Assembly: GCA_043767805.1 (NCBI GenBank)
Contig: JAYUGC010000149.1
Coordinates: 1-24,714, forward strand
Origin: Pseudomonadota bacterium
GTDB lineage: Bacteria > Bdellovibrionota > FAC87 > UBA2466
Direction: 5' to 3'
Length of the DNA: 24,714 nt
A program made the position numbers and the translations under genes. The notes below the pieces were generated by a model. The model was not told where the DNA came from, ran no database searches, and saw only the letters and a program-made list of their open reading frames with translations. Below, one piece after another: positions 2,367 through 24,679 of this stretch. Numbering within the stretch: position 1 is the first letter of the stretch; each line of letters begins with the position of its first letter.

Positions 2367-3005
2367 ATGAAATCCATTCTTACGTTAGTGGTTTTTGGTC
2401 TTGTGGCGGGAACGGCGCAAGCGGCGACGAGCTACGATTATCGCAACGATGCGAAAAAGATCGAGCGCGCCATCGATCAAGGCGATCTGGCCGGTCAGAC
2501 GGAGATAGCGCTGGATAACCTCATCGCGACCGGCGTCCGCGCCTTGCGCGCCGACGGCAAAAACAAAGAAGCCGATCGCATCGAGCTCGAATGGAAGCTG
2601 CACTTCCAAAATACGTTCGCCGCCACCTGGGATCTCGGCGACCACGCCCCGATCTTTCCCTGGCTGGAGAAGGTTTACAAAGACCTCGAGAAGTTTCTCG
2701 GCGAAGGCATGATGCGAAGCTGGAGCCTCTACGATCTTCACGTTCTCAATCTCGCCCTTCCCGTGGTGTTCAATCCCATGGGCAAGGATTGGGATCGGGC
2801 TGAGTACAGAAAGCACTTCGTTCCCTTGGCCGGCGTCATTACTTTCTGGGGCGTTTACTACGGATGCCGGTACGTCATTCCGTGGCAGATGCTCGCGCGT
2901 ATCTGCAGCCCGGCGGCCGGAGCGGCTCGGTGGTGGATGGAATCGAGCGCGGGCTTCCGCCTCGCCGATCGCGTCTACAGCCAGTTCGTCACGGCGACTC
3001 TCTGA
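2367..3005 (+). CDS. Secreted hypothetical protein (212 aa)
   Basis: Signal peptide MKSILTLVVFGLVAGTAQA, GGGGG RBS-like sequence upstream, host-like codon usage. Mostly helical, with a hydrophobic two-Cys C-terminal segment. Confidence 0.8.
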   Translation: MKSILTLVVFGLVAGTAQAATSYDYRNDAKKIERAIDQGDLAGQTEIALDNLIATGVRALRADGKNKEADRIELEWKLHFQNTFAATWDLGDHAPIFPWLEKVYKDLEKFLGEGMMRSWSLYDLHVLNLALPVVFNPMGKDWDRAEYRKHFVPLAGVITFWGVYYGCRYVIPWQMLARICSPAAGAARWWMESSAGFRLADRVYSQFVTATL

Positions 3006-6432: not shown

Positions 6433-7554
6433 TTAGGCAGCGCTACGGTTTGGGGCGAGCCACACGCGTATCATCTGGTTACGTTTTAATCGGATGAGGG
6501 ATTCGAGAATGGTCACGTCGGGAAGCGGATTATAGTCGAGTACCCGCGCGACGTTGCCGAACTCCACGATGCTTGAAAGCGTCGAGAAATCGTCGGGCGG
6601 TAGCTTTACCCCGCTATGAAGCGCGTTTGGCTCTAGCTCGAGCTTCAGCTCACCGGGCGGCAATTCCCGCCGGATCTGATTGAAGCGCGCTCTCAAGGCC
6701 TGGCCTTCCGAGCGGATGTACTTCATGCCGACGTTCAGGTGCTCTTCGAACTCGAGATCGTCGGGGTTCATTTTCGAAAAGACGAACTTGGGCGTATCCC
6801 AGAGGAACATGCGGTAGATGGCTTTAAGCCCGCGCACCTGCCCGGTCTGAGCGCCGACGATTTTCCCTTGAAGGAACTCGACCCGGCCCTCTTGATTGGG
6901 CAGCGGGCCGCGCACCGAGAGTAAGCCCGTGCGCTCGAGATCGTGCACGGTGACCAAGGCGTCTTCGAACTCCTGCTCTTTGTAGAACGGGATTTTAGAT
7001 TGCGCGCTTCCGCCGAAGGCATCCGGCTTCGCCTGAAACTCGTTGCCCGTCACGCCGTGCTCGATTTTGCTGATGGCGGCCTTCATCTCGTCGATCAGCG
7101 TTTTACTGGGAGCGCCGCTTTCTTCCTGAAGCAAAGTCGTCTTCATGCTTTGGAGAACTTGTTCCGTTTCGTGCTGGAGGTCAGCGGCGGCGGCGATTTT
7201 ACGAACTTCCACTTCGACGGATTTGTCTTCGGCGCGCGCGTTTTCAAAAGTGCGGTAAATCCGATGCTCGAGAGCAAAATGGAGATCTTCCTTCGTGAAA
7301 CCGCGCCCATACCAAACTATAAAGCACCGGCGGTTGGCCTCACGAATGGCGTGAATCCACTTTTTGCTGTCGGGCGTGTTCTCGACGAAGGCGATGGGCA
7401 CGTGGCTACCGGAGCTGGCCGTGCGGCAAAAGGTTTCGACCGAAGGCTCCGCGGTCACTTCGACTAGATTCGCCGCGCGCAGGGCGCTTAAGAATTGCGA
7501 TGCCCAAGCACTCACTTCTCCGACGCTATAAATGCGGCAGCAGGGAACCATCAT
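6433..7554 (-). CDS. DUF4388 (PATAN-like) domain protein with N-terminal receiver-like region
   Basis: FEDALVTVHDLERTGLLSVRG...EGRVEFLQGKIVGAQTGQVRGLKAIYRMFLWDTPKFVF is the DUF4388 pattern. C-terminal wHTH-like ...ILESLIRLKRNQMI. GGAGG RBS at 7566-7562. Confidence 0.75.
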   Translation of the reverse strand: MMVPCCRIYSVGEVSAWASQFLSALRAANLVEVTAEPSVETFCRTASSGSHVPIAFVENTPDSKKWIHAIREANRRCFIVWYGRGFTKEDLHFALEHRIYRTFENARAEDKSVEVEVRKIAAAADLQHETEQVLQSMKTTLLQEESGAPSKTLIDEMKAAISKIEHGVTGNEFQAKPDAFGGSAQSKIPFYKEQEFEDALVTVHDLERTGLLSVRGPLPNQEGRVEFLQGKIVGAQTGQVRGLKAIYRMFLWDTPKFVFSKMNPDDLEFEEHLNVGMKYIRSEGQALRARFNQIRRELPPGELKLELEPNALHSGVKLPPDDFSTLSSIVEFGNVARVLDYNPLPDVTILESLIRLKRNQMIRVWLAPNRSAA

Positions 7555-7594: not shown

Positions 7595-8653
7595 TTAGGC
7601 GCCGTATCGACGAGAAAACAGTTCCTTCAACGGACCTGACTGTCGGAGCAGTTGAATGGCGAACTCGGCGTGACCCGGGTAGTAGCCGTTGCCGAATAGC
7701 AACGTCGCCCCACTCGCCACGCCTTCCGCTCCCAAAGCCACCTTCGTAAAGGAAGTCGCCATGCCGAAGAAGAGCACCTTCCCCGTGGAGTGGGCGCTCA
7801 AGATAGCGCTCATCTCCGTGTCAGGGACGGAAACCACGTTTACGACGACGTCTCCCATTTTACCATGGGTGGAGGCATGGATCCCAGCGTGGACGGCGGC
7901 GGAATCGGTGGCGTCGATTTGCAGCACAGCATCACAAACGCCGAGCCGCTTTAAATCTTCCGCGCCCTTGGCTCCCGGCTCGATGCCGATGACTTTTCCC
8001 GTGGGGCCGACCTTGTTTCTTGCCGCAACGCAACTCAAGACGCCCGCTTTTCCGCCCGCGCCCAAAAGCACTACAGTATCGCCCTTTTGGCACAAACCAT
8101 CGACCGTCGCGGGAGCGCCGGCGACATCATATACCGCCATGGCGATGGCCTCGGGGAGATCATCGGGAAGCTTTGCGGCAATGGACGACTCGAAAAGAAC
8201 GGCCGTGCCCTCGACTTCCATCTGGTGGGTGGCCAGGGTTATTTTTTTTATCCGCTCGAGTTTAAGCGGCGTAAGCGTGAGCGAAATGAGGGACGCGACG
8301 CGGTCTCCGACTTTGAGCTTCAGCGGGCCGGCGTATTTCGAGCCGATTTGCGCCACCCGGCCGACCAGCATCCCGCCCGAGCCGGTCACCTTATTTTGCT
8401 GCTTCCCGCGCGCTTTGCAGTTTTCGAGAACGATAGCGGAGATGGCGTCGGCTTTGCCGCCGGTTTCCTTTTCCATCTGGACGAAGCTCGCTGCATCGAT
8501 GTTCAAGAGCTCGACCTGGAGCAAAATCTCGTTTGGATAAATCGGAAGCAAGTTATCGATGCGATCGGCGGCCTGAGGCAAACGCTTTTTCGCGTCGAGA
8601 ACGCGGTGAAGGCCGAGGGGATGCCCGGCTTCCGCTCTTTCAGCGCCCGGCAC
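7595..8653 (-). CDS. kdd: L-erythro-3,5-diaminohexanoate dehydrogenase
   Basis: Kdd-specific motifs G.HRV....LPQ.A.RIDN, LNIDAASF.Q, RGKQQN.VTGSGGML.G, SLISLTLTPL, DVAGAPA, Rossmann GAGGKAG, FFGMATSFTKVALGAEG and GNGY..GHA. GTG start with GAGGA RBS. Confidence 0.92.
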   Translation of the reverse strand: MPGAERAEAGHPLGLHRVLDAKKRLPQAADRIDNLLPIYPNEILLQVELLNIDAASFVQMEKETGGKADAISAIVLENCKARGKQQNKVTGSGGMLVGRVAQIGSKYAGPLKLKVGDRVASLISLTLTPLKLERIKKITLATHQMEVEGTAVLFESSIAAKLPDDLPEAIAMAVYDVAGAPATVDGLCQKGDTVVLLGAGGKAGVLSCVAARNKVGPTGKVIGIEPGAKGAEDLKRLGVCDAVLQIDATDSAAVHAGIHASTHGKMGDVVVNVVSVPDTEMSAILSAHSTGKVLFFGMATSFTKVALGAEGVASGATLLFGNGYYPGHAEFAIQLLRQSGPLKELFSRRYGA

Positions 8654-9686
8654 GGATACGTTCCTCGGCGAGCTTGTCGGCGATGAGAAAGGGAGGCGTA
8701 CCTTCCGCTTTCGCGCGCCGGTAAATCGCCTTCATGGTTTCGTAAATCTCATCTGCTTTGGCGTGTGCGCCATCCTCGTCGTAAGTCCCACTCAGCTCGT
8801 AAAAGATATTGATGATGCCGCCCGCGTTCACCGCGTAGTCGGGAGCATAGAGAATCTTTCTCTTCAAAAGATCGTAACCGCAGCTCTCGTCTTTGAGCTG
8901 ATTGTTCGCGCAGCCCACGATCGCTTTACATTTGAGCCGCGGAATCGTCTCGGGATTTAAGATGGCCCCTCGGGCGCAGGGCGCGAACACGTCGCAGTCG
9001 GCGTCGTAAATAGCGTCGAGAGACACGACTTTGGCGCCGAGCTCGCGGCGCGCGAGATTCAAGGTTTGCTCGTTGGTATCGGTGACAATGAGCTCGCCGC
9101 CTTCTTTCTTGATCCGTTCGGCCAGGCGATAGCCGACGTAACCGATGCCTTGAATGGCGACCTTGATCCCCTTCAGGCTTTTCGTGCCGTGGGTTTCTTC
9201 GAGGGTGGCTTGCAAGGCGCGGAACACGCCCGTCGCGGTCACCGGCGAGGGATCGCCGCTCGAACCGGGAACGCCTTCCATGCCAAGGACGTAGCGCGTG
9301 CTTTCGCGGGCTTCGAGCAAATCGGCGGTGGAGACGTTCATGTCTTTGGCGCCGATGTACTTCCCGCCCAAGGTATCGATGAAGGCGCCCATGGCCTTGA
9401 AGAGGCCGGGTTGCTTCTTGGCCGGGTCGCCGATGATGACGCTTTTGCCGCCGCCAAAGCCGATGCCCGCGAGACTCGATTTGTAGGACATGCCTTTGGA
9501 AAGGCGGAGGACGTCTTCGAGGGCTTCGTTACGCGAGGCGTAGGGAAGCATGCGAATGCCGCCGCAGGACGGCCCGAGAGCCGTGCTGTGTACGGCGATA
9601 ATGGCTTTTAGACCGCTCTCCCGTTCTTCGCCGTAAACGACTTTTTCGTACCCGGGATGGTCTAGCGTTTCGTGTTTCCACTGCAT
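8640..9686 (-). CDS. Glu/Leu/Phe/Val dehydrogenase (leucine-dehydrogenase-like)
   Basis: GLKAIIAVHSTALGPSCGGIR, LRLSKGMSYK, GGGKSVI, SGDPSPVTA.GV, IQGIGYVG, GCANNQL, YAPDYAVNAGGII. ATG 9686 with GGGAGG RBS. Confidence 0.93.
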   Translation of the reverse strand: MQWKHETLDHPGYEKVVYGEERESGLKAIIAVHSTALGPSCGGIRMLPYASRNEALEDVLRLSKGMSYKSSLAGIGFGGGKSVIIGDPAKKQPGLFKAMGAFIDTLGGKYIGAKDMNVSTADLLEARESTRYVLGMEGVPGSSGDPSPVTATGVFRALQATLEETHGTKSLKGIKVAIQGIGYVGYRLAERIKKEGGELIVTDTNEQTLNLARRELGAKVVSLDAIYDADCDVFAPCARGAILNPETIPRLKCKAIVGCANNQLKDESCGYDLLKRKILYAPDYAVNAGGIINIFYELSGTYDEDGAHAKADEIYETMKAIYRRAKAEGTPPFLIADKLAEERIRAGR

Positions 9687-9808
9687 GAGGATGGCCTCCC
9701 TCAAAGACCTTCTGATCTACCGGAAAACGGGGCTATCGGCTAGGGAGTGCAGGGGTTTTTCTTTTGACGGCTCCTGGTCAGGCCGCTAAATAAGATCGAC
9801 ACACGGGT

Positions 9809-10450
9809 ATGGGGACAAAACGCTTCATCGCAATCGCCGGTAATATCGGCTCTGGGAAAACCACGCTGACCCAGATGCTCGCCGAGCGCTATGCTTGGGA
9901 GCCGCACTACGAAGTCGTGGCGGAAAATCCCTACCTGGCCGATTTCTATACGGACATGAACCGCTGGTCTCTCCAGCTGCAGGTATTCTTTCTCTCCAAG
10001 CGTTTCCGGGCTCATCAAGTCATTTTGAAGACCTCCTCATCCGCGATTCAGGACCGGTCGATTTACGAGGATGCCCACATTTTCGCCCGCGCGCTCTATG
10101 AGATGAAGAGCATGGACAAGCGGGACTACGAGAACTATTTCGAGCTGTACTCAATGATGATCGAGCACCTCACGCCGCCCGATCTCGTGGTGTATGTCCG
10201 CCGCAGCGTCGACGTCCTAAAAACCCGCATTGCGATGCGCGGACGCGAGTACGAAAAAAATATTCCGGAAAGCTACCTCCATCTTTTGAACTCCTGCTAC
10301 GACGAGTGGATCGGCACCTACAAAGAAGGCAAAGTGCTGACCGTTTTCGCCGACGACCTGGACTTGCGCGATCGTCCCCAGGATTTCGAGTACGTTTGCC
10401 GCCAGATCGAGTCTTCTCTCGAACAGCCCGAGCTCAAATTCACCTGCTAA
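9809..10450 (+). CDS. Deoxynucleoside kinase (dCK/dGK family)
   Basis: P-loop IAGNIGSGKTT, ENPYLADFY, LQVFFL..RF, QDRSIYED..IF, PDLVVY, RIAMRGREYE. Confidence 0.95.
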   Translation: MGTKRFIAIAGNIGSGKTTLTQMLAERYAWEPHYEVVAENPYLADFYTDMNRWSLQLQVFFLSKRFRAHQVILKTSSSAIQDRSIYEDAHIFARALYEMKSMDKRDYENYFELYSMMIEHLTPPDLVVYVRRSVDVLKTRIAMRGREYEKNIPESYLHLLNSCYDEWIGTYKEGKVLTVFADDLDLRDRPQDFEYVCRQIESSLEQPELKFTC

Positions 10451-10487
10451 GGCGGTATTCTTCCAGTGACCTGATAGTATCGAGGAG

Positions 10488-11261
10488 ATGCCTCTCCTTT
10501 GGCTTTTACTAGCCGTCTTTGGACTCAGGGCTGAAGCCTGCACGGAATATCGCCTTTTAAGAATCGCCACTCAGCCGGAGGCGAAAGTGCGGGTGCTCGC
10601 CGAGTCTTCCGCGCGACTCAAAGACATCGTGGGCGGGAAATACTTTAGCGACAGTCCGAGGCTGTTCGCCCCGGGCAGCACGGGCGGAGTTTTCTACGCC
10701 GTCGTCGTCGGAAAGGATGGTGTTCGTCGCGAGGTTCTTGAGAAAAGAATTTCCATCTCACCCGAAAGCGCCGGTAAATCCGAGGCTGCGACAGCGGCCT
10801 TCGAGTGGGCCGCCGAAGCCGGCATCGGGCCGAAGGTCTTGGGGCACGTGGACCTCGCCGTAAAAAAAGAAGTGCCGGGGACCGCCTACGAAACGACGGA
10901 GCGACTCATTTATCTGGAGAACTTGAGCACGCCCGGGGAAACCGTTTTGTTCGCGGGTCCTTTTACGGGCTTGGGACTGCGGCGGGTTTTCAGCCTGCCC
11001 GAGAGCGCGCAGAAAGAGGTGATGGCTCGTTACGCCCGGCTTCGCGCCGTCCATCCGGACTCCGATACCTTGGATAACTTCCACGTCGCTTACCTGAAAA
11101 ACCCTCCCGACTCCCCTCAGATCGTGAAATACCGCGGCGAAGATGGGCTGAAGTATGGGGTCGATTTGCGCGGCGTGGACTGGGCAGTGAGTAGCAACGC
11201 CGAGCTCGAGCAGATGAAAAAGGACTGGGAAGCTTCAGGCTCTCCTAACAGGGGACCATAA
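10488..11261 (+). CDS. Secreted hypothetical protein with protein-kinase-like motifs (257 aa)
   Basis: Signal peptide ending AEA-C. Ordered kinase-like motifs APGSTGGVF, VLEK, AGIGPKV, IYLENL, HPD..N and VDWA. Confidence 0.7.
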   Translation: MPLLWLLLAVFGLRAEACTEYRLLRIATQPEAKVRVLAESSARLKDIVGGKYFSDSPRLFAPGSTGGVFYAVVVGKDGVRREVLEKRISISPESAGKSEAATAAFEWAAEAGIGPKVLGHVDLAVKKEVPGTAYETTERLIYLENLSTPGETVLFAGPFTGLGLRRVFSLPESAQKEVMARYARLRAVHPDSDTLDNFHVAYLKNPPDSPQIVKYRGEDGLKYGVDLRGVDWAVSSNAELEQMKKDWEASGSPNRGP

Positions 11262-11363
11262 CTTAACCCCGTATGTTTCGAGTGACTCACGCCCCCGCCC
11301 TAAGTCCTGGTAAAATATAGGTCTGCCTTAGCTCAAAGCACAACTCGGCACGCCGAAAGCGCC

Positions 11364-12506
11364 CTAACCCCGGCGCTCGTCGAAGTCGTTCTCTTTGAAG
11401 TTGGGCGGAAGCTGTTTCTTCGTCATGATGTCGGCGATGACCGCGTGCTCGGGGAGCCCGATGGATTTCGTCACTTCCGTCACGTCGATGGGCTTTTTCG
11501 CCTCGGCGTAGAGCTGTTTGCCTTCCTGCACGCGGGCGACCGCTTTTTCGATGAGCGCGAGCGGGATCTCTTTGTTCTCGATGGCCTTGATGATGGCCTC
11601 AAAAGGACCGATCGGAAAGCCCTTCTCGACGCCGCGGTAGATCAAGATATCGCAGCCCGCTTTCACCGCGAGAATCGCCGCTTCTTCCGCCCCGTAGTTC
11701 TCACTCACCGCGTTCATTTCCATGTCGTCGCTGAAAATAATGCGGGTAAAGCGCAAATCGTTTCTAAGGAGATCGAGCGTCGGCTTCGACAGGGTCGCCG
11801 GCCAATCGGGATCGAGCGCGGGATTTAAGATATGCGCCGTCATCACGCCGCCCACGCGGCTACGGATCACGCGCCGAAACGGAATGAGCTCCAATTCGTT
11901 TAGCTGGTCGTAGGTGCGATCCACCTTGGGTAACGTAAGGTGCGAGTCTTCCGTGGTGTCGCCGTGGCCGGGAAAGTGCTTTGCGACCGCCATGACGCCC
12001 ATCTTCTGGATGCCCCGGCACACGGCCGAGCCCATTTTGCCGCACACCTCGGGGTCCGCCGAAAAGGCGCGGTCGCCGATAATGGGGTTCGAGGGATTGG
12101 AGTTCACGTCGACGACGGGAGCGAAATCGATGTTGATGCCCACCGCTTTGAGCTCTTTCGCGAGCACCTGGCCGAACTCAAAACCAATCTTAGGCGAGCC
12201 AAGCTCGCCCAAATGATCGAGGCTCGGAAACTTGGTGAAAGGCGGCTGGAGACGCGCGACCCGGCCACCTTCCTGGTCGACCGAGATGAAAAGCGGCGGC
12301 GCGTTCTTCGGCCGGCAAGAGAACTGAAGCTCGTTCGAAAGCTCGGCGAGCTGAGCCGGCGACTGGACGTTCTGTTTGAAATAGATCGTCGAGCCAAGGC
12401 CGTACTCGATAATGGCCTTCTTGAAGTCCGATGGCACGGAGTACCCATCAAAGCCCACAAGGAACATCTGACCGACGAGACTTTTGATGTCTTTTGAGTT
12501 GGCCAT
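11364..12506 (-). CDS. nagZ: Beta-N-acetylhexosaminidase (GH3)
   Basis: SVDQEGGRVARL, GINIDFAPVVD, IGDRAFS, NagZ signature KHFPGHGDTTEDSH, VMTAHI, nucleophile SDDMEM. No signal peptide. Confidence 0.95.
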   Translation of the reverse strand: MANSKDIKSLVGQMFLVGFDGYSVPSDFKKAIIEYGLGSTIYFKQNVQSPAQLAELSNELQFSCRPKNAPPLFISVDQEGGRVARLQPPFTKFPSLDHLGELGSPKIGFEFGQVLAKELKAVGINIDFAPVVDVNSNPSNPIIGDRAFSADPEVCGKMGSAVCRGIQKMGVMAVAKHFPGHGDTTEDSHLTLPKVDRTYDQLNELELIPFRRVIRSRVGGVMTAHILNPALDPDWPATLSKPTLDLLRNDLRFTRIIFSDDMEMNAVSENYGAEEAAILAVKAGCDILIYRGVEKGFPIGPFEAIIKAIENKEIPLALIEKAVARVQEGKQLYAEAKKPIDVTEVTKSIGLPEHAVIADIMTKKQLPPNFKENDFDERRG

Positions 12507-12597: not shown

Positions 12598-14430
12598 TCA
12601 CTCGTCCTCGTCCTGATTGCCGCGCTTCACGGTGCGTTTACCCGAGTCGAGCATGCGTTTGCGTAAACGCAGGAAGTTAGGCGTTACTTCGAGAACCTCG
12701 TCATCGGCCAGCCAAGCGATACCCCATTCGATGGTGATCGGAAGCACCGGCGTTAAAACGACCGCTTCGTCCTTACCGGCGGCGCGGATGTTGGTGAGCT
12801 TCTTCTCGCGGCAGACGTTAATGTTCAGATCGTTGATGCGATTGTTCTCGCCGACGACCATGCCTTCGTACACGTCCACGCCTTCCTTCACGAAAAGCTT
12901 GCCGCGTTCTTCCAGGTGGAAGAGCGCGTAGGGAATCGTCGTTCCCATGCGATCGGAAATGAGCGCGCCGTTGACGCGATCCAAGATGTGACCCTTCCAC
13001 GGAACATAATCCCGGAAGTAAGAACTGAGGAGACCTTGCCCGCGAGTCACGTTCAAGAACTCGGAACGGAACCCGATGAGGCCGCGGGAAGGAATGTCGA
13101 ACTCCGCGCGTGCCCGGCCCGAGGCCATCTTTTGAAGGTTCGCCATTTCGCCCTTGCGGGTGGCGAGACGCTCCGTCAAGCGGCCCAAACAATCTTCCGG
13201 AATATCCATCACCACGCGCTCGAGGGGCTCGAGGACCGTTTCGCCCTCTTTCTTGGTGATGACCTTCGGACGTCCGAGACCGAACTCGTACCCTTCGCGG
13301 CGCATCTGCTCGGCCAAGATCGCGAACTGCAATTCGCCGCGGCCTTTCAGCATGAACACATCGGGAAGCGCGGTACGTTCCACGGTCATGGAAACGTTCG
13401 TGCGCATTTCTTTCTCTACACGATCCCAAATCACGCGCGACGTAATCTTTTTTCCATCGCGTCCGCTGAGAGGCGAGTTATTAACGAGCATCTCGATAGA
13501 GATGGTCGGCTTCTCGATCTCGATACGAGGGAGCGGATTGAGGTTATTCGGCGAGCAAACGGTGTCACCGATTTTCAAATCTTCGATGCCCGCGACGATG
13601 ACGACGTCGCCCGCTTCCGCCTTACCCGTCGGAACGACTTTGAGTCCCTGATAGTTGTAGAGCGCCGTAATTTTGGTGGTGGTCTGCACGTTGTCTTCGT
13701 GAAACACGGTGACCGTGTCGCCCACGGTGATGGAGCCCGAAACCACTTTGCCAGTGCCGAGACGACCGACGTACTCGCTATAGCTCGTGTTGCTGACCAA
13801 CATGCGCGTGCCGCCTTCTTCGATTTCCGGCGCGGGCAAGTAGCTCAAAATCAAATCCAGAAGCGGCGAAAGGTTCCCGGCCTTACCCAAGTCTTCCGGC
13901 TGCAAATAGGCTTTGCGATCGCGCGCGACGGCGTAGATCACCGGGAAATCGAACTGCTCGTCGGTGGCGTTCAATTCCATGAAGAGCGCGTAAATCTCTT
14001 CGAGCACTTCTTTCGGGCGGGCGTCTCCTCGGTCGATCTTGTTGATGACCACCGCGACCCGAACTCCGCGGGCCAAAGCATGCTTCAGCACGAAACGGGT
14101 CTGAGGGAGCGGCCCTTCGGCGGCGTCCACCAGAACGAGAGCTCCGTCGACCATCTGCAACCCGCGCTCCACCTCGCCGCCGAAATCGGCGTGGCCAGGG
14201 GTGTCCACGATGTTGATCTTGTGGTCTTTATAGAAAATTGAAGCGTTCTTCGCCGTGAGGGTGATCCCCTTTTCACGCTCGAGGTCGCCGCTATCCATCA
14301 CGCGATCGGCGATGGTTTGGTTGTCGCGGAAGGTCCCCGACTCCCAAAGTAAGCCGTCCACGAGGGTGGTCTTCCCGTGATCTACGTGGGCGATGATGGC
14401 GATATTACGGATCTTTTCGTTTCTTTGCAT
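12598..14430 (-). CDS. typA: Translational GTPase TypA/BipA
   Basis: [90 protein letters not shown]. Confidence 0.98.
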
Positions 14431-17763: not shown

Positions 17764-17777
17764 TATAATTTAACTTA
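17764..17777. promoter_or_regulatory. Bidirectional overlapping -10 elements
   Basis: Plus strand TATAAT(17764-17769)-N7-ATG 17777. Minus strand TAAGTT(17777-17772)-N8-GTG 17763. The gap is only 13 bp and has no RBS. Confidence 0.55.
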
Positions 17778-18199
17778 TGAAACGGCTCGTGGCTCTACTA
17801 TTGGTGCTCTCCTTCACCGCCGGCTGCAGCAGGACCCGGGAGGTGGCAGAAATACTTAACTCGGGCGCGCACTATCTCGTTCTGGGCGAGATGGCCCTCA
17901 AAATACCCAACGATCTGCAAAGCGGGGCCTGCCACAATAAGATCGGCGAAAGTACGCTGAGCTATACGGGCTCCACGGGAGTGATGAACGCCGCGGTCGA
18001 TCTCGAGGACGGCAGCAAGCTCACCTGCACGTTAAAAGTCGCTTATACGATTAGCTCGGAGGGCACTTCACTTCTCGGAGCGGGCAATATTTTCAGCTGC
18101 GACGCTTTCAACTGCTCCCTCGGCGCTCAAATCATCGACTGCGAGGAGCTAAAGAAAGCCATGCACGATTACACCTGCTCGACAACTGCCGAGTTCTAA
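17777..18199 (+). CDS. Hypothetical Cys-rich lipoprotein (140 aa)
   Basis: MKRLVALLLVLSFTAG-C lipobox, plus six further Cys. Confidence 0.8.
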   Translation: MKRLVALLLVLSFTAGCSRTREVAEILNSGAHYLVLGEMALKIPNDLQSGACHNKIGESTLSYTGSTGVMNAAVDLEDGSKLTCTLKVAYTISSEGTSLLGAGNIFSCDAFNCSLGAQIIDCEELKKAMHDYTCSTTAEF

Positions 18200-18585: not shown

Positions 18586-19233
18586 TTAGGCCGGGGTAGG
18601 CGCCGGAGCGGGAGCGGGAGCCGCCACTGGCGCGACTTTTTTCGCGGCCTTTGCGTTAGCCGCGGCTTCTAGAGTCTTCAACTTCTTACGCCGCTCGACA
18701 AGCTCCGAAAAATCGAGGCTCATGACGGGCGCGGCATCGGGACTCGAAATCACTTCCTGCACGGGCGGAATCTTCGACGTATCGTGCTTCGGCGCCTTGT
18801 AAAGCTTGCGGAACGATTTCAGGGTCAAATCTTTCGAAAGCGAGAACTCTTCCGTGGAGCGGGCCTCGACCATGACGATGGCTTTCGCCTTGGGGTCGGC
18901 AATGAGCTTCAAGAAATTATCGGGAAGCTGGAAGACCTGGCTGAAAGAGCCCTGCTGAGGGTTCTCGTGGGAATAGGTGAAGGTCATTTCCTTCTCGCTC
19001 CACTCCGGAGACACGACCCAGAAACGGAACCGGTACATTTTTACGTCGAAAGTAGCCGGGTCCCACGTCACGAAAGCGCCGATCGTTGCGTTTCCTCCAG
19101 TAGAGAACAAACCGAACTTGGGCTGACCTTTGGTGGCTTTTCCTTGGATGAAGAGCACGACCAAACCGAAAATGGCGCCCAGAAAGGCCACCGTTGCGAG
19201 CACGCCACCAAATAATGTCAACCAGACCGGCAT
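18586..19233 (-). CDS. Hypothetical membrane-anchored protein (215 aa)
   Basis: N-terminal TM helix, beta-rich middle, Pro/Ala-rich tail (APAPAPAPTPA). AAAGGT RBS. Strong codon bias; 12 bp upstream of DUF1844. Confidence 0.8.
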   Translation of the reverse strand: MPVWLTLFGGVLATVAFLGAIFGLVVLFIQGKATKGQPKFGLFSTGGNATIGAFVTWDPATFDVKMYRFRFWVVSPEWSEKEMTFTYSHENPQQGSFSQVFQLPDNFLKLIADPKAKAIVMVEARSTEEFSLSKDLTLKSFRKLYKAPKHDTSKIPPVQEVISSPDAAPVMSLDFSELVERRKKLKTLEAAANAKAAKKVAPVAAPAPAPAPTPA

Positions 19234-19414
19234 CTTAACCTTTCTCTACTCGCCGCCTTCCCCGCGCCCAGGGGCTGAAGGAAGGGCTTGAATATGCTGC
19301 AAAATCCCCAGATTTTTACCGTAGGCTCACCCCTTTGTCGAGATCTGGGATCGCGCCCTTGATTGGGCTCTGCCTTTCTTGATACAAAGCGCCATTCTGA
19401 ACCGGAGAAAACCC

Positions 19415-20065
19415 ATGAATTGGATGAAAGTTTCGGCCCTCGTCCTTTTGGCGACTGCGACCCTGGCTCAAGGCGCTACTGAAGCGCCCCTCGATCCGAT
19501 CGCCGAGACGGTTACGGTCAGCCACCCCCCGGTGTCGCCGCTCTCCTTCGGGCTCGATTTGAAATATCGCCCCGTTCAGTTCCCGGGCCTTTCCGCGGCT
19601 CACGGCCACGGCGGCCAGCTCGCCCTCGAGTACCTGCCGGCCGCTCCTTACAAAAGGTACGTGGGCAAACCCGCAATCGGCCTCAGCGTTGGCTTCGGCA
19701 AGATTCCCAACATCGGCTCGGCCGTTTCGTTCACGACGATGCCCGTGTCGGCTTACCTGGCCTACCGGCTAGACATTCTGGACAACCAGATTCTCGTTCC
19801 GTTCGGAAAGATTGCCCGCTCCGTCACCCTCGAGCACCGGAGCAACGGAAACAACTCCCGCTATCAGAGCTGGGACTACTCCCTGGGTGGCGAGCTTTGT
19901 CTGAACTCTCTCGATAAACGCTCGGCCAAGTACCTCGACATGGACGTGGGCATCAACAACACCTACCTCATCGTCGAATGGGTGAAATCGACGCCGGTAG
20001 ACGGCTACGTCCAAGACAATCTCGCCCACGAAGAATGGCAAATCGGCCTTCGCTTCGAAATGTGA
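19415..20065 (+). CDS. Outer-membrane beta-barrel, MXAN_2562-family-like
   Basis: GGAG RBS and signal peptide (..ATLAQG/A). YRLD......LVPFGK and L.L..LD..SA..LD.D.GINNTYL..EW, with C-terminal beta-signal WQIGLRFEM. Confidence 0.7.
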   Translation: MNWMKVSALVLLATATLAQGATEAPLDPIAETVTVSHPPVSPLSFGLDLKYRPVQFPGLSAAHGHGGQLALEYLPAAPYKRYVGKPAIGLSVGFGKIPNIGSAVSFTTMPVSAYLAYRLDILDNQILVPFGKIARSVTLEHRSNGNNSRYQSWDYSLGGELCLNSLDKRSAKYLDMDVGINNTYLIVEWVKSTPVDGYVQDNLAHEEWQIGLRFEM

Positions 20066-20391: not shown

Positions 20392-21579
20392 ATGACCCAA
20401 GGACGGCTCCTCATTTTCGATACCCACCCCATCGCGTACCGATCCCCGGTATTTCGGGCTCTTCACGAGTCCCACGGCAATATGAAGGTCTACTTTCTGA
20501 GCTCTGGCTTCGACGGCGGACGCTGGTGGTTTCACGAGACGGGAAAGACCGCCCCTCAGACCCAGAACCCGAAGCTGACCGAAGGTTTTCCCAACGAGAC
20601 GCTCGGAACGGAGAAGCTCGGCGTGGGGGGGACGCTCAAAGCGCTCCACCTTATTTTAAAGAACGAGCGGCCGGCGGCGGTTCTGATTTACGGGTACTAC
20701 CTGCCCGATCATTGGACCTTGAGGTGGCTCACCGCCCGAATGGGGATTCCGCTCCTTTTCGTTGGAGAGACCTTTGCGGCCACCAATGGGCGAGCCAGGA
20801 AACTGCTTCGCGCGCCGCTCAGAAAATACTTTTTCCGAGGTGTGTCTCGCTTCGTGGCGATTGGGGACCGAACGGCCGCCTTGTACGACTCCTTGGGAGT
20901 TCCCGCGGAACGAGTCGATCGGGCGAAGTATTGCGCGGACGTTTCCTTTTTTGAGAGATCGGAAGCTGAGGCGCGCGAACGGCGCGCGAAGTGGCGGCGA
21001 TCCTGGTCCTTGGGCGAGGAGGCCTTCGTCCTTCTCTTCGTCGGCCGCCTCTTCGAGCGTAAGCGTCCTCTGGACGCCGTCGCGCTTCACAAACTTCTCT
21101 TAACGATGAAAAGCGTACATACCTTTATCGTCGGTAGCGGCAATCTGGAAACGGCGGTACGGAAAGCCGCGGACGGAGTCTCACGGCTAGAGGTGCTGGG
21201 CTTCAAGAATCGTGACGAGCTACTCGATCTGTATCACGGCGCCGACCTACTGATAGTTCCTTCGGAATTTGAAACCTGGGGACTCGTCGTCAACGAAGCT
21301 TTTGCCGCGGGAACTCCCGCTCTCGTCACGAGCCAATGCGGGGTCGCGGGAGATCTGGTGATTCCCGGCAAAACGGGATTCATTTTTCCGGTGGGCGCGC
21401 TCGCCGAAGCGGCACGGCTCGTGCGCGCGGCGCTCAAAGATCGCAAGCGATTTGAAAAGGTCGCCGCGGCGGCCCGCCAAAAAGCGGGAACCGAGTACAG
21501 AGCCGACCAGTTCGCGGAAGTCTTGAAGCAATCCTCCCAGCGGGCCGCGGAGTCAGGCGGCGGGCAGCTTCAAAGCTAA
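20392..21579 (+). CDS. Glycosyltransferase family 4 (GT-B)
   Basis: THPIAYRSPVFR, LFVGRLFERKRP, LGFKN..EL..LYHGADLLIVPSEFETWGLVVNEA (EX7E), DLV.PG.TG. Confidence 0.92.
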   Translation: MTQGRLLIFDTHPIAYRSPVFRALHESHGNMKVYFLSSGFDGGRWWFHETGKTAPQTQNPKLTEGFPNETLGTEKLGVGGTLKALHLILKNERPAAVLIYGYYLPDHWTLRWLTARMGIPLLFVGETFAATNGRARKLLRAPLRKYFFRGVSRFVAIGDRTAALYDSLGVPAERVDRAKYCADVSFFERSEAEARERRAKWRRSWSLGEEAFVLLFVGRLFERKRPLDAVALHKLLLTMKSVHTFIVGSGNLETAVRKAADGVSRLEVLGFKNRDELLDLYHGADLLIVPSEFETWGLVVNEAFAAGTPALVTSQCGVAGDLVIPGKTGFIFPVGALAEAARLVRAALKDRKRFEKVAAAARQKAGTEYRADQFAEVLKQSSQRAAESGGGQLQS

Positions 21580-22665
21580 GCGCGCTTTTCCGGCGGGGGC
21601 GTCTTCCCGCACGACGGTGCCGCCGTGAAGCTCGACGACGGTGCGGCAGATGGCCAGCGCCAAACCGAGGTTTTTCTCGTGGCGCATGGGCTCGGAGCCG
21701 GTCTCCAAAGCATCCATGGCTTCCGGAGAAATCGGATCTCCCTCGCGGGTGAGGCGGAACATCACCCACTCGCCCTGTTTCACGACTTCGAGCTGAATCT
21801 CTTTGCCCTTCGGAGATCGGGCGATGGCGTCCTTTAAAAAATATTTCAGGCCGTCTTGAAGTTTCTGGGCGTCGGCGTTCACGGTGAGGCCCCGGCCGAC
21901 GGTCCCCTTGAAGCTCACCTGACGGGCGGTCCGCTCGGCTTCGAGTTCTTTTAAGATCTGCATCGTCGCCTTCTCCAGCTCGACCGGGCTCAACGTGAGA
22001 CGAGTATCGGACTCCATGCGCACGAAGGTCAGCACTTCGGAGACTATTTCCCCAAAACGATCGGCGGCGCGAGAGACGGAAGTTACCGCCGTTTGTAAGT
22101 CGGGCGTGAGCGTGCTTTTCGAGTCCACGATCATGGACACGAAAGAAGTGAGCACGGTGAGAGGCGTGTTCAGCTCGTGAGAGACTAAAGACAAAAACCG
22201 AGCCTTCGCGCGATCGAGCACCGTGAGCTCGCGCAACGCGCGTTTCAGCTCTTCGTTACCTTTCGCGAGCGCCACGTTTTTGAGCTCGATCTCGTGCTTT
22301 AAAAGAAAGGCCTCGTTCGCCTGCCGGAGGGTGAGCTTTAAATCCTCGGGGTCCCAGGGTTTCGCGACATAGCGATAAATATTGCCGCGGTTGATGGCAC
22401 CGATGACCGACTCGATGTCCGTATAGCCGGTTAAGAGAATCCGGGTAGTCAGCGGGCAAACGTCCTTGGCCTTTTCGAGAAACTCGACCCCGGTCATCTC
22501 GGGCATGCGCTGATCGGACACGATCACGTGAAACGGCGTACGGGTGATGAGCTTCAGGGCCTCGAGGGGTGACTCGCAAGTGGTGATCTGATAATCGCTG
22601 CGTAGAAGGCGCTTAAGCGCCTCCAGATTGTCTTTTTCGTCATCGACAATGAGGACGGGATCCAT
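21553..22665 (-). CDS. Hybrid response regulator-histidine kinase (REC-coiled coil-HisKA-degenerate HATPase), 370 aa
   Basis: REC: VLIVDDE, VIVSDQRMPEMTG, LLTG, AKPW. H-box FLSLVSHELNTPLT. HATPase fold remnants LGLALAIC..VVELHGG. Confidence 0.9.
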   Translation of the reverse strand: MDPVLIVDDEKDNLEALKRLLRSDYQITTCESPLEALKLITRTPFHVIVSDQRMPEMTGVEFLEKAKDVCPLTTRILLTGYTDIESVIGAINRGNIYRYVAKPWDPEDLKLTLRQANEAFLLKHEIELKNVALAKGNEELKRALRELTVLDRAKARFLSLVSHELNTPLTVLTSFVSMIVDSKSTLTPDLQTAVTSVSRAADRFGEIVSEVLTFVRMESDTRLTLSPVELEKATMQILKELEAERTARQVSFKGTVGRGLTVNADAQKLQDGLKYFLKDAIARSPKGKEIQLEVVKQGEWVMFRLTREGDPISPEAMDALETGSEPMRHEKNLGLALAICRTVVELHGGTVVREDAPAGKARLALKLPAA

Positions 22666-22747
22666 AGTTAAGAGGGGGTTGCGGGCTATTGGCTGACCGA
22701 CTGTCCCAATGATATGTGTTCCCCTTCCCGTATTCAAGGAGCGCCCC

Positions 22748-24679
22748 ATGGACCAATCGATTGAAACCGTGCTCAAGGAGACCCGTACCTTCCCGCCTCC
22801 CGCGGACTTCTCCCGATTGGCCAACCAAAATGACGCTAAAGCCTTCGAGGCCATGTGGGCCGAGTCGCAGAAAAACCCGGTCGCCTTCTGGGAAAAAGCC
22901 GCGGACTGCCTCACCTGGGAAAAGAAATGGGACAAAGCGCTCGAGTGGAACGAGCCCTTCGCGAAATGGTTCGTCGGCGGAAGGATCAATGCCTCGGTCA
23001 ACTGCCTCGACCGGCATTTGAAAACGCGCGGGCACGCTGCCGCCCTCATCTGGGAAGGCGAAGACGGCCAGGTCATCCGCTTGACCTACGACGAGCTCTA
23101 TCGCCGGGTTTGCCGCCTTACCAACGCTCTGGAAAAAAAGCTGGGGCTCAAAGCCGGCGACACCGCCGCCCTCTACATGCCGCTCGTTCCCGAAGCGGTG
23201 ATCATCATGCTCGCTTGCGCCCGGCTCGGCGTCACCCATAGCATCATCTTCGCGGGTTTCGCCGCGCATTCCGTCCGCGATCGCGTCAACGATGCCGAGT
23301 GCAAAGTCATCTTCACGGCCGACTTCGGATACCGCCGGGGCGCGAAGCTCGAACTGAAAAAAATCATCGACGCAGCTGTCATGGAAACCCCGTCCGTAAA
23401 GCACGTCGTCGTCTTGCAAAGAGAGGGCGATCAAACCCTGCTCTCGAAAGACGTCGACTACAGCGAGCTCTGCTCGGGGATGAGCGACGACCACATAGCT
23501 CAAGCTTTTGATTCCGAGCACCCGCTCTTTTTTCTCTACACCAGCGGAACCACGGGAAAACCGAAAGGCATCGTCCATTCGACGGGCGGCTATCTCCTGG
23601 GCGTGGCTCTCACCACGAATTGGGTTCTCGATCTGAAACCCTCCGACATTTACTGGTGTACTGCCGACATCGGCTGGGTCACCGGCCACAGTTACGTCGT
23701 CTACGGGCCGCTGGCGAACGGCGGAACAACTTTGATTTATGAGGGCGGCCCCATGCACCCGACGCCGTCCCGCATCTGGGAAATCGTCGAGAAGCATAAG
23801 GTCAGCATTCTCTATACGGCGCCCACCGCCATCCGCTCCTTCATGCGCGCGGGCGACGAGCATCCGGCAAAGTACCCGATGAAGTCCTTGCGTCTTCTCG
23901 GCTCGGTGGGCGAGCCCATCAACCCCGAAGCGTGGATGTGGTACTTTGATAAGATAGGCCACGGCCGCTGTCCTATCGTCGATACTTGGTGGCAAACCGA
24001 GACGGGCGCCATGATGATTAGCCCGGTACCGGGAGTCACCACTACGAAGCCCGGTTCCGCCACGCGCTCGCTTCCCGGTATCGTCGCCGATATCGTCGAC
24101 GAAGCAGGAAAGACTTGCCCACCGAACGTGGGCGGCTATCTCGTCATTCGTCACCCTTGGCCTTCGATGCTCAGAACGATTCACAAAGATCCCGAACGGT
24201 ACAAAAACACTTACTGGTCGAAGTTTCCCGGCCTTTATTTCGCTGGAGACGGCGCGAGCCGCGATGCCGATGGTTGCTTCTGGATCAAGGGACGCGTCGA
24301 CGACGTCATCAACGTTTCCGGACATCGGTTAGGCACCATGGAGATCGAGAGCGCGTTGGTCAGCCATCCCAAAGTCGCCGAAGCCGCGGTGGTCGGCATT
24401 CCCCACGAAATGAAGGGCCAAGCGATCTACGCGTACGTCACGCCGGTAGGCAATGCGAAGTTCGTGACGAAGGACCTCATCGCGGAGCTGAAAGAGCATG
24501 TCGTAAAGGAAATCGGCTCGCTCGCCCGGCCCGAGGAAATCCGTCTAACAAAAACGCTCCCAAAAACTCGCAGCGGAAAAATCATGCGCCGGCTTCTAAA
24601 GGATCTCGCCTCAGGCAAACCAATGACGGGCGACACAACAACGCTAGAGAACCCCGATCTCGTCGAGTTCATCGACTAA
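22748..24679 (+). CDS. acs: Acetate-CoA ligase (acetyl-CoA synthetase)
   Basis: AAGGAG RBS. YTSGTTGKPKG, WCTADIGWVTGHSY, GSVGEPINPEAW, DTWWQTETG, GRVDDVINVSGHRLG, and acetylation motif PKTRSGKIMRR. Confidence 0.98.
   Translation: MDQSIETVLKETRTFPPPADFSRLANQNDAKAFEAMWAESQKNPVAFWEKAADCLTWEKKWDKALEWNEPFAKWFVGGRINASVNCLDRHLKTRGHAAALIWEGEDGQVIRLTYDELYRRVCRLTNALEKKLGLKAGDTAALYMPLVPEAVIIMLACARLGVTHSIIFAGFAAHSVRDRVNDAECKVIFTADFGYRRGAKLELKKIIDAAVMETPSVKHVVVLQREGDQTLLSKDVDYSELCSGMSDDHIAQAFDSEHPLFFLYTSGTTGKPKGIVHSTGGYLLGVALTTNWVLDLKPSDIYWCTADIGWVTGHSYVVYGPLANGGTTLIYEGGPMHPTPSRIWEIVEKHKVSILYTAPTAIRSFMRAGDEHPAKYPMKSLRLLGSVGEPINPEAWMWYFDKIGHGRCPIVDTWWQTETGAMMISPVPGVTTTKPGSATRSLPGIVADIVDEAGKTCPPNVGGYLVIRHPWPSMLRTIHKDPERYKNTYWSKFPGLYFAGDGASRDADGCFWIKGRVDDVINVSGHRLGTMEIESALVSHPKVAEAAVVGIPHEMKGQAIYAYVTPVGNAKFVTKDLIAELKEHVVKEIGSLARPEEIRLTKTLPKTRSGKIMRRLLKDLASGKPMTGDTTTLENPDLVEFID

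Follow-up and report, generated by a model that had tools for sequence, protein, structure and literature searches.

A rare, putatively exported protein of a Bdellovibrionota bacterium with a predicted minimal protein-kinase-like fold

We analysed a stretch of 24,714 nucleotides, here called the window (positions 1 to 24,714 of contig JAYUGC010000149.1, assembly GCA_043767805.1), from a bacterium placed in the phylum Bdellovibrionota, and examined one gene that lies between a deoxynucleoside kinase gene (dNK) and a nagZ-like gene. Its product, P0001, had been put forward as a secreted, highly divergent kinase-like orphan. The open reading frame (ORF) runs from ATG to TAA at exactly 10488-11261 of the forward strand and encodes 257 residues, and every peptide quoted in the original prediction is present in its translation in the order given there (FAPGSTGGVFYA, VLEKRI, AGIGPKVLG, LIYLENL, VHPDSDTLDNFHV and LRGVDWA). 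The codon log-odds score of this frame (0.215) was the highest of the six, the remaining five scoring between -0.49 and 0.10, and GC content by codon position was 0.63/0.46/0.68 in a genome of 58% GC. Contigs of three further sequencing runs contained the identical DNA stretch with zero differences. Because one of these contigs bridges the deoxynucleoside kinase gene and the ORF (9835-10823) and matches without difference, the junction between the two is not an assembly artefact. The four DNA runs that hold the stretch belong to a single sediment-metagenome study and give no independent support beyond this junction, and the absence of sequence variants across them is uninformative on expression or selection. 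These results demonstrate that the P0001 gene is real and not a chance open frame.

The claim that the protein is an orphan of no named family was borne out by Pfam, NCBIfam, HMMER and phylum-wide profile searches. Pfam returned no family for P0001 or for its two relatives described below (P0003 and P0004), even at E ≤ 10, and no NCBIfam model matched P0001; PADLOC was likewise negative, and PHROGs gave a single row at E 0.1 under a threshold of E ≤ 1. A search for paralogues in the same genome, which had been proposed with the original prediction, found none at E ≤ 10. Among 60 relatives, including a congener, the best match reached E 0.007 (16 bits), and when 401 genomes of the phylum were searched by profile, the genome of origin matched and none of the 400 others did. 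A word-indexed search of 5.8 billion clusters returned the query alone, and HMMER, run exhaustively on 1.84 billion representatives, returned four proteins at E ≤ 0.001: the query, P0002, and the two true relatives. P0002 (4736 amino acids, E 1.6e-42 over 45 stretches) was rejected, as it carries 53 FN3 repeats and its score sums weak repeats. P0003 (280 amino acids; 27% identity, pairwise E 2e-14) and P0004 (273 amino acids; 29% identity, pairwise E 2e-16) both align with P0001 over the full length; they are singleton clusters with a single occurrence apiece, on contigs of 2053 and 1460 bases. A profile built from the three sequences found no further member in protein, genome, metagenome or viral contig collections, where pattern matches stayed unconfirmed. 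As far as the searched collections go, the family has three members. We also considered a lipoprotein-like orphan (L005, genome G019; 240 amino acids, positions 1114-1836 of the reverse strand, no Pfam family), which contains IVGGKY.S..P as P0001 does and is identical to P0001 residues 47-105 at 22 of 60 positions (pairwise E 6e-6). It has no kinase motif in common with P0001 and the likeness is probably due to chance.

The three-way alignment of P0001, P0003 and P0004 contains 45 invariant columns at 27-33% identity. Invariant in all three proteins are G63, G66, G67, V68, E85, K86, E106, G112, G114, P115 and K116 in the first half of the protein, and Y142, E144, H189, P190, D191, L195, N197, F198, G229, V230, D231 and W232 further on (Table 1). 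The glycine loop, the beta3 lysine, the aspartate of the HPD motif, the following asparagine and the aspartate of the VDW motif had all been named from a single sequence; because these same residues turned out to be invariant in three of three proteins at less than 33% identity, their conservation amounts to a prediction that was passed. One detail of the original prediction did not stand, namely that the glutamate of helix alphaC is not at its usual position: the invariant E106 is part of the predicted helix 92-110, 20 residues past K86.

We then compared the distances between these residues with those in 27 eukaryotic-type protein kinase (ePK) domains from genomes of the same phylum, the distances in P0004 being derived from the invariant positions (Table 2). 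Judged from the sequence, the N-lobe of P0001 is canonical, as its Gly-to-Lys and Lys-to-Glu spacings are within one residue of those in ePKs. The catalytic loop is one residue longer, with six residues from Asp to Asn in all three family proteins against five in 27 of 27 ePKs, and a predicted beta-hairpin is inserted before the metal-binding aspartate.

Table 1. Coordinates of the P0001 gene, its features and its neighbours in the window
Feature	Position	Strand	Basis or remark
Kinase-like protein gene (P0001), stop codon included	10488..11261	+	ORF list, translation, codon score, homologues, contigs
Residues 1-17, putative Sec signal peptide	10488..10538	+	core L3-L13, A15-E16-A17 before C18; read from sequence
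Gly-rich loop GSTGGV, residues 63-68	10674..10691	+	G63, G66, G67, V68 invariant; precedes predicted strand 68-74
E85-K86, K86 the beta3 Lys candidate	10740..10745	+	invariant; in predicted strand 80-90
Helix 92-110 (alphaC equivalent) with E106, then G112-x-G114-P115-K116	10761..10835	+	predicted, pLDDT 77-88; residues invariant
Y142-L143-E144, hinge-like end of N-lobe	10911..10919	+	Y142, E144 invariant; end of predicted strand 132-144
H189-P190-D191...N197-F198, catalytic-loop equivalent	11052..11081	+	invariant; directly after predicted helix 172-188
G229-V230-D231-W232, DFG equivalent (candidate metal-binding Asp)	11172..11183	+	invariant; end of predicted strand 222-229
Helix 237-250, sole helix after VDW (minimal C-lobe)	11196..11237	+	predicted, pLDDT about 85
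Internal GGAGG-N5-GTG, codon 34, alternative signal-less start	10577..10589	+	sequence
TGaTAGTAT, possible extended -10	10472..10480	+	sequence; last base 7 nt before ATG
Leu/Glu dehydrogenase-like gene	8640-9704	-	neighbour
Deoxynucleoside kinase (dNK) gene	9809-10450	+	neighbour, 37 nt upstream of P0001
GH3 NagZ-like gene	11364-12506	-	neighbour
BipA gene	12598-14430	-	neighbour

Table 2. Spacing of kinase motif residues in reference domains and in two family members
Interval	ePK median	P0001	P0004
Gly to Lys	20	20	19
Lys to Glu	19	20	18
Glu to hinge Glu	30	38	31
Hinge Glu to catalytic Asp	45	47	58
Asp to Asn	5	6	6
Asn to metal Asp	13	34	21

AlphaFold2, run on the three-sequence alignment, gave a model of P0001 with a mean predicted local distance difference test (pLDDT) score of 65.7 and a predicted template modelling (pTM) score of 0.66, the other four models reaching 48-55. 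Residues 12-57 scored below 50, and blocks of ten residues across about 81-250 scored 64-91. The predicted structure is bilobal and kinase-like, as had been proposed, in keeping with the general PKL (protein-kinase-like) plan of a five-stranded N-lobe with an alphaC helix and a helical C-lobe with the catalytic loop. Elements of the N-lobe include strands 68-74 and 80-90, helix 92-110 and strands 117-129 and 132-144; those of the C-lobe are helices 162-167 and 172-188, the HPD motif at 189-191, strands 198-204, 212-216 and 222-229, the VDW motif at 230-232 and helix 237-250. The elements follow one another as they do in a kinase domain, and each motif sits on the expected element of the model. 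The proposal of a minimal C-lobe also agrees with the model, in which a single helix follows VDW and the protein ends 26 residues past D231; the homologues end 55-62 residues past the corresponding aspartate.

A Foldseek search of the PDB with this model gave no match at E ≤ 0.001 (best 6.6e-3). Among the matches listed, 47 of 48 were kinases, pseudokinases or phosphatidylinositol phosphate kinases, the best being MK2 (3kc3_C) and PknE (2h34_B). Against the viral predicted structures of BFVD the best E-value was 3.3e-4, for an unnamed protein, and 8.4e-4 for the best named kinase; the named matches were mostly protein kinases of giant viruses. Structural alignments to CDK6, FAK and PknE all stop at residues 231-233 of the model, at VDW, and in the respective chains at CDK6 residue 165, FAK residue 565 and PknE residue 158, which in the numbering of those proteins are presumably at or adjoining the DFG motifs. 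The model of P0004 (pLDDT 48) is too poor to count as an independent structure, and still 42 of its 50 listed matches were named kinases. A protein language model placed P0001 nearest to named clusters of RIO1, APH, YrbL and ABC1, and P0004 nearest to OspG, YrbL, APH and ABC1/RIO1 (scores of 0.89-0.92 in both cases); such scores are leads and not alignments. Because the matches from the fold searches are uniform and the motifs map onto the expected elements, we consider it very likely that P0001 adopts the PKL fold that the model predicts. Two outcomes had been named in advance as refuting the original prediction, a model without a bilobal kinase fold and motif residues that vary among homologues; both were checked, and neither occurred.

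On balance, we favour the interpretation that P0001 is an exported, active minimal PKL kinase that acts outside its own cytoplasm. Several points, given here and beside the alternatives on which they bear, weigh against it. No sequence method tied P0001 to any kinase family, whether Pfam, NCBIfam, the PDB or hhalign. PDB searches by sequence and by profile returned no kinase for P0001; the designer PPR repeats that they did return were rejected, as these were summed weak matches in which each single stretch had E > 100. When the three-sequence profile was aligned by hhalign, an ePK profile of 28 sequences reached a probability of 0.07 and an APH profile of 27 sequences a probability of 0.6 over 26 columns, with an out-of-register alignment. 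The query profile in this comparison had an effective number of sequences (Neff) of 1.8 and no secondary structure, so that the comparison had little power. No partner genes lie beside P0001, whose neighbours are housekeeping genes. Its codon usage is merely at the 13th-15th percentile of the long ORFs of the genome, the codon score standing at the 15th percentile among 1092 of them.

The ORF could instead be a recently acquired, decaying or functionless one, in which case the kinase model would over-read a shallow alignment. That neither the congener nor any of the 400 other phylum genomes searched has the gene would fit such a history, as would a codon adaptation in the low-normal range, two singletons on short contigs as the only relatives, and the fact that none of the sequencing runs listed is recorded as RNA. 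Nevertheless, the reading frame is unbroken and has the expected codon-position pattern, the residues conserved among three distant sequences cluster at the motifs, and the fold matches are uniform; we regard this explanation as very improbable.

The next question is whether the protein would transfer phosphate. The catalytic Lys, Glu, Asp, Asn and Asp are all invariant at 27-33% identity, and for this reason we think it fairly probable that P0001 is an active phosphotransferase and not a pseudokinase. Not every feature points the same way. The catalytic loop is atypical, its HxD motif having Pro as the middle residue in addition to the longer Asp-to-Asn distance, and both features count against the favoured interpretation. 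An insertion of 8-21 residues lies between the Asn and the metal-binding Asp, the C-lobe is extremely short, and the structural matches include the pseudokinases JAK2 JH2, RNase L and ULK4. A kinase-fold protein without phosphotransfer to a substrate could be imagined, be it a pseudokinase, a nucleotide scaffold, an ATPase, or an enzyme with AMPylation- or glutamylation-type chemistry, for which SelO and SidJ use the kinase fold. Set against the invariant catalytic residues, a pattern that is not typical of pseudokinases, this appears improbable.

The case for export comes from the N-terminus. P0001 begins with MPLLWLLLAVFGLRAEA-C, comprising a hydrophobic core of 11 residues, an A-x-A motif and a cysteine, and a short hydrophobic segment of 9-11 residues stands at the N-terminus of all three family proteins. 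P0003 has a classical leader, MRFILSFVFALSLTSQLSA-AS, with an n-region that starts MR and an SAA cleavage-type site; P0004 begins MPILLLTIFLF, so that P0001 and P0004 both start with MP(L/I)LLL. The maximum hydropathy over 10 residues was 2.65 in P0001, 3.0-3.1 in the leaders of outer-membrane proteins and lipoproteins encoded in the window, and 1.5-1.9 in the cytoplasmic dNK and NagZ, which places P0001 close to the leaders and above the two cytoplasmic proteins. The lipobox pattern [LVI][ASTVI][GAS]C is absent from P0001, which reads A-E-A-C18 with Glu at position -2, and from P0004, which reads F-S-N-C14. From these N-terminal features we consider export of P0001 likely.

The N-terminus also holds features that count against export. 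No Lys or Arg precedes the hydrophobic core in P0001 or P0004 (there is one in P0003), and the basic residues R14, R22 and R25 follow the core of P0001. Sec signal peptides combine a basic n-region with a hydrophobic core of 7-15 residues and small residues at -3 and -1; P0001 shows the core and the small residues and lacks the basic n-region. At 10488, a GGAG directly abuts the ATG with zero spacing, whereas an internal GGAGG (10577-10581) is followed after 5 nt by a GTG at 10587, a textbook start at codon 34 that would omit the signal. The same kinase-like enzyme might then be cytoplasmic, either by starting at this GTG or by keeping an uncleaved anchor with the domain inside, and would be an ordinary small intracellular PKL kinase in a compartment where ATP is available. 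However, the homologues keep the hydrophobic N-terminus, which speaks against the start at codon 34, and in three of three proteins the hydrophobic segment is too short for a membrane helix; the classical n-region and SAA site of P0003 and the shared MP(L/I)LLL start of P0001 and P0004 also argue for a leader. We therefore hold a cytoplasmic location to be unlikely. The zero spacing itself may be of little consequence: the gene had been credited with an extended -10 of its own, and the string is indeed present upstream of the ATG (Table 1), although a two-hexamer promoter scan gave no site. Such an element, read from the sequence, would make the mRNA leaderless or nearly so, with no need for a Shine-Dalgarno sequence.

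In the same region, a small hairpin at 10482-10499 (GAGGAGA-TGCC-TCTCCTT, 7 pairs, with a T-rich run after it) lies across the start codon of P0001 and could be a weak terminator of dNK or occlude the start. Terminator-like sites numbered 4 against 2.4 +/- 1.9 expected from shuffled sequence, which is not significant.

Returning to the interpretation of P0001 as an exported and active kinase, its layout would be a minimal kinase domain of about 200 residues behind a Sec-type signal peptide and a linker of about 40 residues that is modelled with low confidence. Export would proceed by the Sec pathway with cleavage after AEA17. The glycine loop and K86, held by E106, would bind ATP, N197 and D231 would hold Mg2+, and D191 would be the catalytic base. 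The periplasm is generally held to lack an ATP supply. Because this would apply to the periplasm of the producer as well, the most likely place of action would be on or within prey cells, or in lysate, where ATP is at hand, and an effector acting in prey or host may be envisaged. The substrate could be a small molecule, lipid or glycan, or alternatively a protein substrate or partner could complete the active site, as in minimal kinases of the Bud32, RIO and OspG type; both options fit because the activation segment and the substrate-docking helices are missing.

Among known kinases, P0001 would work like the minimal ones (RIO, Bud32, YrbL and OspG). It differs from the RIO/Bud32 type (for example, Archaeoglobus fulgidus Rio1, PDB 1zp9) in an Asp-to-Asn spacing that is one residue longer, in a putative N-terminal export signal, and in being known from three sequences only; in addition, P0001 has HPD where RIO kinases carry HGD. 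The RIO1 family (PF01163) gave no match in protein scans or in a six-frame scan of the genome. Compared with ePKs (PF00069), P0001 lacks the activation segment, the APE motif and the later helices of the C-lobe, and the SPE/APE column that is conserved in the 27 reference ePKs has no counterpart in P0001. The genome's own ePKs are easily recognised (3 matches, E down to 3e-49), whereas P0001 is not.

YrbL (PF10707) and OspG (PF22303) resemble P0001 in being small stand-alone PKL domains of about 200-240 amino acids. The language model scored YrbL at 0.89 for P0001, and for P0004 it gave OspG at 0.92 together with 13 YrbL-type matches; the Pfam models of YrbL and OspG gave no match at E ≤ 10. 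PF10707 had no match in any of 301 genomes of the phylum searched for it, and in a scan of the genome of origin it hit an unrelated place at E 0.22; Kdo kinase was found in 1 of 151 genomes and RIO1 in 0 of 1. OspG is an effector secreted by a type III system and is not known to carry a Sec signal. The Fam20 kinases of the secretory pathway provide an analogy, in that a kinase fold lies behind a signal peptide and would act outside the cytosol, and neither PF06702 nor PF00454 gave any signal in the genome, the frames of the window included. APH proteins (PF01636) are small-molecule kinases of the same superfamily, a cluster containing APH is among the language-model neighbours, and the APH motifs "H.D....N" and "IDW/IDF" resemble HPD...N and VDW. 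Unlike P0001, however, the APH proteins of the phylum have 320-400 amino acids and a large helical C-lobe, and the APH family of Pfam gave no match to P0001. Taken together, the family of P0001 appears, as far as can be read from its sequences, to be a new PKL family that is extremely rare and carries a putative export signal. Our full-text literature searches listed no publication about exported kinases in predatory bacteria. According to passages of a recent preprint, structure-based pipelines keep finding new PKL families, and the P0001 family has no mention in those passages (10.64898/2026.09.18.752743).

The surroundings of the gene point to an insertion. The closest named relative of the neighbouring BipA is labelled as an uncultured Pseudobdellovibrionaceae bacterium (86% identity), in agreement with the placement in Bdellovibrionota. 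In two genomes of the same family but of other genera (G005 and G006), dNK and nagZ are directly convergent and the slot between them is empty. The congener (G001) has conserved flanks, with a dNK that is 90% identical, and in the slot between dNK and nagZ it carries an orphan protein of 746 amino acids, which has a hydrophobic N-terminus and matches no Pfam family. This protein was considered as a relative of P0001 and found to be unrelated. The P0001 gene is thus a species-level insertion in a variable dNK-nagZ slot (window positions 10451-11363). Around the gene we found no Rfam families and no inverted repeats, and the direct repeats were short and of a size expected by chance.

Elsewhere in the window, four small ORFs have no Pfam family (2367-3005, 17777-18199 and 19379-20065 on the forward strand and 18586-19233 on the reverse strand). 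At least two of them have clear leaders: ORF 2367 starts with MKSILTLVVFGLVAGTAQA, and ORF 17777, which is lipoprotein-like, starts with MKRLVALLLVLSFTAGC. The sole match of an ORF of 373 amino acids at 6433-7554 on the reverse strand was a sub-threshold one to DUF4388 (E 3.3e-5, 24.4 bits, the cut-off being 25). A hybrid response-regulator/histidine-kinase ORF (21553-23076, reverse strand) and an acetyl-CoA-synthetase ORF (22709-24679, forward strand) overlap on opposite strands by about 370 bases, and one of the two starts is probably placed too far upstream.

The family of P0001 is recognised by no profile library, and it has three members among about 15 billion proteins. If the predicted fold is correct, it indicates that a C-lobe pared down to the catalytic core and one helix can still accommodate the full catalytic set. 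Bacterial kinases with a Sec signal are unusual because the periplasm is held to lack an ATP supply. The value of the finding is limited by the rarity of the family, the lack of partner genes and the uncultured host, and P0001 is at present a candidate for biochemistry and not yet a system. Bdellovibrionota is a predatory phylum, and an exported kinase in such a lineage would suggest a target in or on another cell. In the boldest version, which we consider rather unlikely, the predator delivers P0001 to its prey, where P0001 draws on the ATP of the prey and phosphorylates one of its proteins, lipids or envelope components, and the family of P0001 is one among several exported kinase families of the phylum that are unrelated to each other. 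If this were true, phosphorylation of prey would be a general strategy of predation in the phylum.

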